Of a stretch of DNA of 29,269 nucleotides, positions 1,493 to 14,736 are shown in pieces. Made by a program: the position numbers and the translations under genes. The DNA is taken from positions 1-29,269 of the forward strand of contig JAQBUT010000030.1 in assembly GCA_027623195.1 (NCBI GenBank), given 5' to 3'. The stretch comes from Chloroflexota bacterium (GTDB lineage Bacteria > Chloroflexota > Dehalococcoidia > Lucifugimonadales > JADFKI01). The notes under the pieces are model-generated. The model was not told where the DNA came from. It was given only the letters and a program-made list of their open reading frames with translations, and did no database searches. Every line of letters begins with the position of its first letter. Position 1 is the first letter of the stretch.

Positions 1493-1696
1493 TCTATACG
1501 TCTGTCATGCGGTGCGATAGGGATATGATGGATTAATCATCTGGTTCTCACCGAAGGCCACACAAGGTTCACTAGAATTCACCTTTTTTGACCCCAACAA
1601 GTTCACACTTGTATGGCACACTTAGAGTTGGGTGAATGTTGTCCTACGAATCACCATTTAAGGCGGTAATACGCACCATTCGAGACAGCGAGGGTA

Positions 1697-1975
1697 ATGA
1701 TGAACGTACTTATGGACCTTCCCATAAGCAGGCAAGACATTTCGGAAGAACTTATAGATCAGGAACTTTTTCTCTATGATGAGGGAACGGGCTCGGTCCA
1801 CCAGCTAAACAGCGGCGCTGCTATGATCTGGCTTTTGTGCGATGGCACGAAAGACGTAGCCTCAATTGCGGTCGAAATCGCCAAAAGCTCAAACGTTGAC
1901 GCCGAAAACGTGCTGCAGGATGTCCAGGAGGCGCTTCAGAAGTTCGATTCGCTGGGCCTTCTTGTAAGCAGTTAA
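1697..1975 (+). CDS. PqqD-family protein / stand-alone RiPP recognition element (RRE)
   Basis: 92 aa with 'ELFLYDEGTGSVHQLNSGAAMIWLLCDG..DV..IA..IA....DV...L..F...GLL', the PqqD pattern. SD-like GAGGG upstream. Confidence 0.9.
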   Translation: MMNVLMDLPISRQDISEELIDQELFLYDEGTGSVHQLNSGAAMIWLLCDGTKDVASIAVEIAKSSNVDAENVLQDVQEALQKFDSLGLLVSS

Positions 1976-2122
1976 ATCCCAGGCGTTATTTTGTAATTGG
2001 TCTGGTGGAACGTCCAATTCGGACGCACTGACCTGAATTTTCGAATACCGCCATTCAGGACACCGTCCTCGTGGTTGCAGCTTTCTGAATTGTGACTCAG
2101 GCGCTGTAAACCGAGGAATTAT

Positions 2123-2176
2123 ATGAACGAAAAGGACTCCTTGGATTTGCAAGACATCACCTTAACAAGCCGCTGA
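2123..2176 (+). CDS. 17-aa micro-ORF MNEKDSLDLQDITLTSR, or the true kinase N-terminus interrupted by UGA
   Basis: SD GAGGA at 2113-2117, ATG at 2123, TGA at 2174-2176. Same frame as the kinase ORF at 2228, with no other stop in between. Confidence 0.45.
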   Translation: MNEKDSLDLQDITLTSR

Positions 2177-2227
2177 GGTCAGGAGCTAAACGCTCTGGAT
2201 TGGGCGTCCGACTTCTGCTACGAACTG

Positions 2228-3085
2228 ATGGGCCGCCGCATTCGTATTCGCACCACTTCGGAGAAGACCTCTGAGGGTATCCATAGCCTCTTGCGCTCTT
2301 TTCCTCGCCAGATGCCTGCGGATGGCTCAGCAGAGACCACGTTCTCGTTGGTGATGGGTCCCGCTTCCAACCTGGCTCATGTTCGTCCCTTCCACAGCTT
2401 CTACCGAGACGACTTGAAGGTCGGTCGCACAACGCATGACTGGTACATGTTTCGCCTGTTGGAGTGGCAGACCAACATGTTCCTGGGCGAACACGTGGAT
2501 GATTACCTCCTACTGCACGCGGGTTCGCTTTCGAAAAACGGCAAGGGCCTAATTCTTCCTGCGCCGTCGGAAAGCGGCAAGACGAGCTTGACCATGGCCC
2601 TCACCCGCCGAGGCTTCGGATACATGTCCGATGAGTTTGGCATGGTGGACACCGTGGGTGAGGACATAATGCTTCACCCGTTCCCCAAGCCGTTCAGCAT
2701 CAAAAATAGGACCCTTTTCCCCGATCTTGCTGCCCAGGAACACCTGTGGGTGGGGCCCGGAAAAGACGCGACCCCTGAACAAGACGAAGAACCCGTCTGG
2801 TACATTCATCCAAACGACGCTCGTGAGTCGGCTATAGGTAACTCCGTACCGCTAAGATATGTGCTGTTCCCCATGTATAGCTCTTCCGCTAACCCTTCCC
2901 TGACGCCGGTAAAATCCGGGGATGCCGTTCGTAACCTGATTGAGAACTCAGTCAACTTCCAGCAGGTGGGTGGAGTAGGTCTGGGGGCCATCGTCGAACT
3001 GGTAAAGGGAGCGAAGTGCTACTCCCTTGCCATTAACGACCTGCAACAGACGGCCGACCTGGTAGAAGACCTCCTATCCCTGTAA
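2228..3085 (+). CDS. HPr kinase-related P-loop kinase (HprK-related kinase A-like); start uncertain
   Basis: 'LLLHAGSL..NGKGLILPAPSESGKTSLT' (His plus Walker A), 'GFGYMSDEF', 'HPFPKPFSIK'. Adjacent to a PqqD gene. The frame is open upstream to 2177. Confidence 0.88.
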   Translation: MGRRIRIRTTSEKTSEGIHSLLRSFPRQMPADGSAETTFSLVMGPASNLAHVRPFHSFYRDDLKVGRTTHDWYMFRLLEWQTNMFLGEHVDDYLLLHAGSLSKNGKGLILPAPSESGKTSLTMALTRRGFGYMSDEFGMVDTVGEDIMLHPFPKPFSIKNRTLFPDLAAQEHLWVGPGKDATPEQDEEPVWYIHPNDARESAIGNSVPLRYVLFPMYSSSANPSLTPVKSGDAVRNLIENSVNFQQVGGVGLGAIVELVKGAKCYSLAINDLQQTADLVEDLLSL

Positions 3086-3168: not shown

Positions 3169-3405
3169 ATGTCAAATCGGAAAGGCCATATGTGGACCAG
3201 ACTTAAGAGTCCCTTCCTCGCATCAATTTTTTCAATTGGACTAATCTTGATGGCCATTACAGTGTGGATAGGAGTGGGGCTGATCAATGAGTGGCCGACG
3301 TACGATGGTATGGCCAAAGGCGGCGGAGTTATCGTGGCGATAGCCCTGGGTGGTATCGGGTTTGCCATGACGTTGCTGGGTCTCCGACCGGGGTGGAAAG
3401 AGTAG
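3169..3405 (+). CDS. Small two-TM membrane protein of unknown function
   Basis: Two hydrophobic helices (FLASIFSIGLILMAITVWIGVGLI and GVIVAIALGGIGFAMTLLGL). May start at Met8 (3190). Confidence 0.65.
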   Translation: MSNRKGHMWTRLKSPFLASIFSIGLILMAITVWIGVGLINEWPTYDGMAKGGGVIVAIALGGIGFAMTLLGLRPGWKE

Positions 3406-3496: not shown

Positions 3497-3575
3497 GCTC
3501 GTTCCCTGACGAGCCGGTCTCGTTGAGACTCCTCCTGGGTTTAGCCCCCGCGCATTATGCGCGGGGGCTTTTTTT
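3497..3575 (+). ncRNA. Candidate small RNA: two hairpins, anti-SD CUCCUCC, intrinsic terminator
   Basis: Hairpins GCTCGT/ACGAGC (3497-3514) and GTCTC/GAGAC (3517-3529), then CTCCTCC (3529-3535), then the terminator. Confidence 0.4.
3543..3575 (+). terminator. Rho-independent terminator
   Basis: Perfect 12-bp stem AGCCCCCGCGCA / TGCGCGGGGGCT with a TTA loop, followed by a T run to 3575. Confidence 0.9.
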
Positions 3576-14661: not shown

Positions 14662-14736
14662 CGGGGTGTAGCGCAGCGGTAGCGCGCCTGTTTTGGGAAC
14701 AGGAGGTCGCTGGTTCGATCCCAGTCACCCCGACCA
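14662..14736 (+). tRNA. tRNA-Pro (anticodon TGG), CCA encoded
   Basis: Acceptor stem CGGGGTG/CACCCCG. Anticodon arm CCTGT-TT TGG GA-ACAGG. T-loop GTTCGATC. Ends ACCA. Confidence 0.97.

Follow-up and report, generated by a model that had tools for sequence, protein, structure and literature searches.

A gene for an HprK-related kinase lies in a 29,269-nucleotide (nt) stretch of Chloroflexota DNA, referred to here as the window, behind a 17-codon open reading frame (ORF) that shares its frame and is separated from it by a single UGA. This arrangement raises the question of whether the UGA ends a peptide in its own right or is read through to give one protein. An MFS gene on the minus strand is followed by a PqqD/RRE gene (1697–1975, plus strand), which encodes a peptide-binding protein of the HPr-rel-A type (PF05402, 50.7 bits; TIGR04353, 35.1 bits against a cut-off of 35), and then by the kinase gene (2123–3085, plus strand), which encodes 320 amino acids if read through. 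The kinase scores 136.3 bits against TIGR04352, under the cut-off of 200. It matches HPr kinase structures (E values of 4e-5 to 2e-3) and atlas clusters named HprK-related kinase A, shows the invariant columns His132, Walker A Gly152-Lys153 and Asp170-Glu171, and has close homologs in proteins with the source label Chloroflexota. The source genome of the window (G000) is 87% complete.

Re-reading the sequence bore out several of the elements on which the original prediction was built. A Shine–Dalgarno (SD) GAGGA (2113–2117, plus strand) lies 5 nt before ATG2123, from which 17 codons (2123–2173, plus strand) encode MNEKDSLDLQDITLTSR up to the TGA at 2174–2176 (plus strand), codon 18, and the frame then stays open into the kinase as far as the TAA at 3083–3085. 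The predicted anti-SD duplex of ATG2123 equals that of the PqqD gene (−5.9 kcal/mol), as against −0.1 kcal/mol for Met2228, which had been said to have no SD, and an AGGAG (2181–2185) does lie 9 nt 5′ of an in-frame CTG (2195–2197, plus strand). Because SD-led, TGA-closed in-frame small ORFs precede only 9 of the 1843 long coding frames of the source genome, this locus counted, the arrangement exceeds chance.

The stop codon is present both across sequencing runs and in relatives. The TGA is unchanged in the contigs of all four sequencing runs, from two studies; two of these runs may be the source of the window itself, and the other two represent a 99%-identical strain with 18 single-nucleotide polymorphisms (SNPs) over 1.8 kb and an intact TGA. 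Seven strain SNPs 3′ of the UGA are synonymous and three non-synonymous, and the kinase is therefore maintained under purifying selection; the small ORF carries a single SNP, giving T13S. The codon is also TGA in the ortholog L004, the sole source of close ortholog DNA; searching genomes from relatives up through the family, order, class and phylum turned up no other. In G086 and G081, whose kinases belong to a subfamily only 25–27% identical to that of the window, an ATG-led in-frame ORF (26 and 24 codons, respectively) ends in TGA exactly nine codons before the conserved Trp27 on which the alignment was anchored (Trp-9), and an ATG follows. Thus TGA occupies Trp-9 in four of the eight loci with a placeable codon, the other four having sense codons (TCC in G242, TCG in G441, CGA in G862 and GGC in G854). 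Loci without the Trp anchor, nine from one set and two from another, were left out of this count, and none of the nine has a TGA at the extrapolated codon. TGA stops 318 of 1712 long ORFs in G000 (19%) and, in sampled stretches, 53 of 178 in G086 (30%) and 25 of 54 in G081 (46%); the joint chance of three TGAs is about 0.03 if they are independent and 0.06–0.09 if G086 and G081 share theirs by descent. A sequencing error or recent nonsense allele, which had been offered as one of three explanations, is refuted by the four runs, the TGA of L004, G086 and G081, and the SNP pattern; this recoding-like UGA is real and old. We likewise rejected a changed genetic code, as TGA ends those 318 long ORFs of G000 and the sole tRNA called with a UCA anticodon is tRNA-Sec.

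Small in-frame ORFs with a TGA directly before the kinase ATG occur in L030 (7503–7583) and L031 (upstream of 7748, minus strand), and could be widespread in a subfamily that comprises thousands of proteins. A query with P0001 gave no confirmed related locus among genome contigs, and a query with an alignment gave a single distant locus. Viral contigs held no related locus, five pattern matches there being due to chance; the weak match L005 was also taken as chance and excluded. G001, G002 and G004 contained no RRE match, the contig of G001 stopping about 100 bases past the MFS start.

Comparison with homologous proteins indicates that the 17-codon ORF and the kinase are likely to be one gene. 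Eighteen homologs carry a sense codon at Trp-9 and in-frame tails of 3–19 residues; the residue at Trp-9 is Ser in five, Arg, Gln, Trp, Leu or Glu in two each, Gly, Thr or Pro in one each, and Cys in none. Counted from the stop, the shared tail position −6 is Leu or Ile in 11 rows and position −2 is Ser in 10 of 22; the tails of subfamily B keep PRL[KR] both 5′ of a stop and in natural fusions. The longer motif PRL[KR]xxS is also found in the fused proteins P0309, P0310 and P0324 and in G862. Between the window and L004, 9 of 16 tail codons differ, one change being synonymous. The upstream start comprises ATG and SD in the window and G081, and ATG with a short-spaced SD in G086; in L004 it is lost, AGC replacing ATG and the SD being absent, which leaves only a weak TTG or an ATA from which the tail could start. 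In a different frame, L004 contains a 26-codon ORF with an SD and a GTG start (1287–1367), and its TAA overlaps an in-frame ATA that could start the tail by coupling.

Behind the UGA, the dominant predicted fold differs from the hairpin first proposed. The latter (2182–2196; −5.7 kcal/mol) plays a minor part, with a pair probability of about 0.01. The dominant fold, a SECIS-like hairpin at 2181–2216 (plus strand; −16.6 kcal/mol), consists of an upper stem (2190–2195/2202–2207), with five of six pairs at a probability of 0.97–0.98 and the outer pair at 0.74, and a lower stem (2181–2185/2212–2216) in which the AGGAG is paired; its loop, UGGAUU (2196–2201), opens 19 nt 3′ of the UGA. Selenocysteine (Sec) had been disfavoured on the grounds that the loop lacked a G, and since the dominant loop has a G at position 2, this reason falls. 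The window and L004 pass the published bSECIS rule (limits given in the Fig. 2 legend of PMC13188914, 60-nt fold), as do 14 of 22 selenoprotein candidates of the source genome. Among controls the pass rate is 5–6%, with 194 passes for 3000 random TGAs, 15 for 308 real TGA stops and 54 for 924 coding positions. The sense-codon locus G854 passes, and G086, G081 and G242 fail. Under a post hoc rule with a 48-nt fold and a spacing of 16–24 nt, set once the data were known, all four TGA loci and one of four sense loci (G242, Ser codon) pass, and the spacing rule admits 19 of the 22 candidates compared with 7–10% of controls. The loops of those 19 span 3–5 nt, as against 6 nt in the window. Synonymous recodings pass the 48-nt rule in 129 of 600 cases for the window, 308 of 600 for G086 and 234 of 600 for G081 (21–51%), and in 9–37% for 12 reference selenoproteins, so that the hairpin arises in part from the protein motif itself. 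Synonymous changes between the window and L004 affect 1 of 11 sites in the hairpin versus 106 of 231 in the PqqD and MFS genes (P = 0.014), and the first codons of the MFS gene are similarly quiet (2 of 13 synonymous sites changed). In G242, a strong hairpin (L028:13989–14040; −20.9 kcal/mol, equalled by 9 of 600 recodings) follows the Ser codon at the UGA position and may be a relic SECIS or a stem with another role. A first scan for a TGGA-loop motif was dropped as unselective (98 matches).

The check for selABCD suggested at the outset was positive: the source genome has selA, selB and selD above their cut-offs as well as tRNA-Sec (selC), and the selD gene itself contains a TGA. A coding-score scan of the genome yielded about 22 in-frame UGA selenoprotein candidates, chosen by eye on the basis of their motifs, which we take to be of rhodanese-, AhpD-, Prx-, DsbA-, OsmC- and DUF3179-like types. 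They carry hairpins and include C37:+45680 CFVU and C56:−153769. G086 and G081 have selA, selD and tRNA-Sec, and selA is also present in the sense-codon genomes G242, G862 and G854. Of the explanations first offered, readthrough of the UGA has become the best supported, and Sec, which had been set aside because the wrong hairpin was folded and selA, selB, selC and selD lay out of view, is now the favoured mechanism.

We accordingly lean, if only somewhat, towards a single 320-amino-acid HprK-related kinase with Sec at a non-catalytic site (Sec18) and selenium-dependent expression. Translation would begin at ATG2123, and the UGA would be decoded as Sec with the help of SelB docked on the hairpin 19 nt further on, yielding the predicted kinase. 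If Sec-tRNA ran short, ribosomes would terminate, setting free the 17-mer and leaving little kinase. Substrates of the kinase and the RRE protein would be proteins with twin-arginine leaders whose genes lie in trans. We observe a conserved UGA, a Sec machinery, a kinase under selection and no canonical start before Met36 (see below), and we predict the hairpin fold; SelB binding, Sec insertion, selenium dependence and the substrates are what we infer. Sec18 sits in the variable tail, far from the His, Walker A and Asp-Glu catalytic residues and at no Cys position. A catalytic role is unlikely because Cys never takes its place, and Sec18 may instead be a gate or a tolerated passenger. Tolerance of a passenger could come from the D-x-L-x-W-A codons, which by themselves form a SECIS-like stem at a suitable distance; the stem of the Ser-codon locus G242 would then have the same explanation. 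Several observations speak against Sec: there is no Cys homolog, L004 has no ATG, the hairpin is partly dictated by protein sequence, G086 and G081 fail the 60-nt rule, the loop is long, relatives show a restart, and selA occurs in sense-codon genomes.

The main rival, an unlikely but serious one, retains the earlier proposal of a separate peptide in front of a CUG-started kinase. On this view translation ends at the UGA, and the small ORF is a leader with a coupling or regulatory role: the ribosome that completes it unwinds the hairpin and begins again at CUG2195 by means of the AGGAG. ATG2228 is a less likely restart site. The codons directly 3′ of the UGA are GGT CAG, and no in-frame ATG, GTG or TTG occurs between the UGA and Met36 (2228–2230, plus strand), the start called in databases (P0002), so that readthrough from ATG2123 and restart at CUG2195 are the remaining options. 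Met36 lies 3′ of the conserved LxxLDW..FCY stretch, and a start there would cut this motif; the database start is probably wrong under any reading. A restart requires no Cys homolog, the AGGAG-N9-CTG is kept in L004, the AGGAG is paired in the lower stem, and some homologs (P0006 and P0046) begin near this point. Besides the TGA-ATG of G086 and G081, Met stands at +1 in 119 of the 120 subfamily B proteins listed and in 66 of 69 further ones listed, and restart is therefore the rule in that subfamily. However, CUG starts are rare and weak, CUG2195 is at the top of a stem of 0.97 probability, and a start there would lose the conserved Leu22. This residue, encoded upstream of the CUG, matches a position that is hydrophobic in 119 of 119 rows of subfamily B, and its codon differs synonymously from that of L004 within an unpaired stretch.

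Restart at the CUG also leaves unexplained why all four known stops are TGA and why called starts scatter among close relatives. A quick tree groups the window with P0003–P0008 in a 98% clade, and all six of these proteins have called starts 3′ of Trp-9, at +2, +10 or +18. Gene callers faced with a shared stop would be driven to such scattered starts; the stops of these proteins and of most of subfamily B are deduced from protein starts, and P0006 and P0007 lie on short contigs. The sister rows G242, P0041, P0012, P0049 and P0057 have a sense codon and a tail. Codon +2 is start-type in P0003–P0005, AAG in L004 and CAG in the window, a variation that would be odd for a sole start. Selenium readthrough and restart might also be combined in a gate across this multi-phylum kinase family, an idea we put forward tentatively and regard as improbable: a UGA fixed at one codon, with an in-gene SECIS, between a conserved short peptide and the kinase domain would let selenium supply determine whether the peptide is released alongside a short kinase or joined to the kinase as a single selenokinase. 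With the restart Met lost in the lineage of the window, the RRE-associated kinase would be made only when Sec is.

A bypass that does not involve Sec is also conceivable, through near-cognate (Trp) readthrough and perhaps together with a nascent peptide that slows termination, although we think this quite improbable. Residues of the tail motif stand at fixed distances from the stop (Leu/Ile at −6, Ser at −2), Trp is found in 2 of the 18 sense rows, and 12 of the 18 sense codons are one base from TGA (P = 0.016, the rows not being independent). The arrest leader PepNL, whose UGA is read by Trp-tRNA (PMC11890864), is the nearest parallel without Sec. Like PepNL and TnaC, the window has a short ORF with a stop before a gene; unlike them, its ORF is in frame with the downstream protein and homologous to the tail of that protein. 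Against such a bypass, SelB would in any case be drawn to a hairpin that conforms to the SECIS rule in a genome rich in Sec, and the tail of the window is poorly conserved relative to L004.

More doubtful still is a 17-mer that serves as a separate substrate, bound by the RRE protein and phosphorylated near its C terminus by a kinase restarted downstream. The penultimate Ser recurs among the tails, and so the phospho-site idea is still alive; PRL[KR] is kept in subfamily B tails, and lasso-peptide kinases phosphorylate the C-terminal Ser of their precursor (PMC9266682). Yet in 18 homologs tail and kinase form one protein, and the LDLQ that had been likened to a class III lanthipeptide leader motif is WPLK in L004 and absent from G086 and G081. 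LanKC kinases are Hanks-type, whereas that of the window is of the P-loop HprK type, which leaves the lanthipeptide part of the earlier proposal unsupported; PF05147, used as a LanKC check, had no match in G000, and control genomes were equally silent.

Other genes offer better candidates. The kinase of G242, L026 and G441 is preceded by another gene, one with a twin-arginine-like leader, which in G242 and L026 lies between RRE and kinase; in G086 and G081 the twin-arginine leader is fused behind the RRE. G000 has two twin-arginine-leader genes in trans, at C35:5842–6774 (minus strand; L036) and C1:6326–6856 (minus strand; L037), with E values of 2e-8 and 6e-5. Their products, of 310 and 176 amino acids, give weak TAT-signal matches under the cut-off and, judging by sequence, are likelier partners of the RRE protein than the 17-mer. 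Both genes carry the leader TRRQxIKAGGxAALGLAFSxP, which in other genomes stands next to this kinase, and one has a DNRLRE domain (NF033679, 49 bits). L030 (8465–9004) and L031 (6366–6929) encode fusions of an RRE domain, a twin-arginine leader and a Cys-rich core, located between the kinase and a PF14907 nucleotidyltransferase and adjoining a Wzz/ParA-type gene. Finally, a sequencing error, recent nonsense allele or pseudogene is hardly credible given the four unchanged runs, the TGA of L004, G086 and G081 and the seven synonymous against three non-synonymous SNPs, even if the missing ATG of L004 and the lack of a PF14907 match in the profile search of the 87%-complete G000, which makes the system look reduced, point that way.

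Among known systems, HPr-rel-A (TIGR04352/TIGR04353) resembles the locus in having an RRE gene, here at the TIGR04353 cut-off, beside an HprK-type P-loop kinase, with a PF14907 nucleotidyltransferase added in related loci. It differs in that the kinase of the window stays below the TIGR04352 cut-off (136 versus 200) and has a UGA in its N-terminal tail, and in that G000 shows no nucleotidyltransferase match and has its leader-bearing genes in trans. The lasso-peptide kinases PadeK, ThcoK and PsmK with PsmN likewise combine kinase and RRE, with a nucleotidyltransferase in relatives, and their His-Lys-Asp acidic motif (PMC9266682) resembles His132, Lys153, Asp170 and Glu171 when matched by eye. 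Unlike them, G000 gave no match to the PF13471 B2 leader peptidase in a profile search in which two control genomes were positive, and the candidate substrates are twin-arginine-leader proteins. With bacterial selenoproteins, the locus shares an in-frame UGA, a hairpin with a G-led loop 16–37 nt downstream and a full sel machinery; it differs in having no Cys homolog or redox motif and in the position of the UGA outside the catalytic core. Table 1 of PMC13188914 gives 119 families of bacterial selenoproteins, with no kinase among them, and because the Cys-homolog test failed we place the kinase in no known selenoprotein family. A UGA-split RRE–kinase arrangement was undescribed in the titles and abstract openings of the open-access literature searched.

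Nearly all selenoproteins have Cys homologs, and it is through Cys/Sec pairs that new ones are discovered (PMC13188914, section 6). Were the kinase confirmed to carry Sec outside the catalytic site and where homologs have no Cys, it would mark a blind spot of this approach, and a selenium gate would amount to a selenoprotein class without Cys homologs, invisible to such screens. Two ideas would also become open to testing, namely that Sec acts as a selenium sensor and that it is a neutral passenger permitted by a motif-encoded hairpin. Whatever the reading, the annotated proteins of the whole clade of this kinase are probably too short, and a short peptide conserved 5′ of a large kinase subfamily has been overlooked so far. 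The locus also yields candidate substrates for uncharacterised HPr-rel-A-like systems.

Around these genes, a promoter-like consensus match 5′ of the RRE gene (1502–1529, plus strand) is at chance level (one found versus a shuffle mean of 1.5). A 78-amino-acid ORF with two membrane helices (3169–3405; weak PF18895 match only, E = 0.03) lies between the kinase and a terminator-like stem with a U run (3543–3569, plus strand; shuffles average 2.4), and a tRNA-Pro(TGG) gene is found at 14662–14736. Three strain SNPs in the RRE gene, at 1727, 1826 and 1832, are all non-synonymous (S11G, I44V and L46F). The MFS–RRE gene order of G242 is identical to that of the window. The MFS–RRE intergenic stretch (1500–1660, compared with 770–900 in L004) is conserved about as well as coding DNA, and this sequence likely holds a shared promoter or operator.
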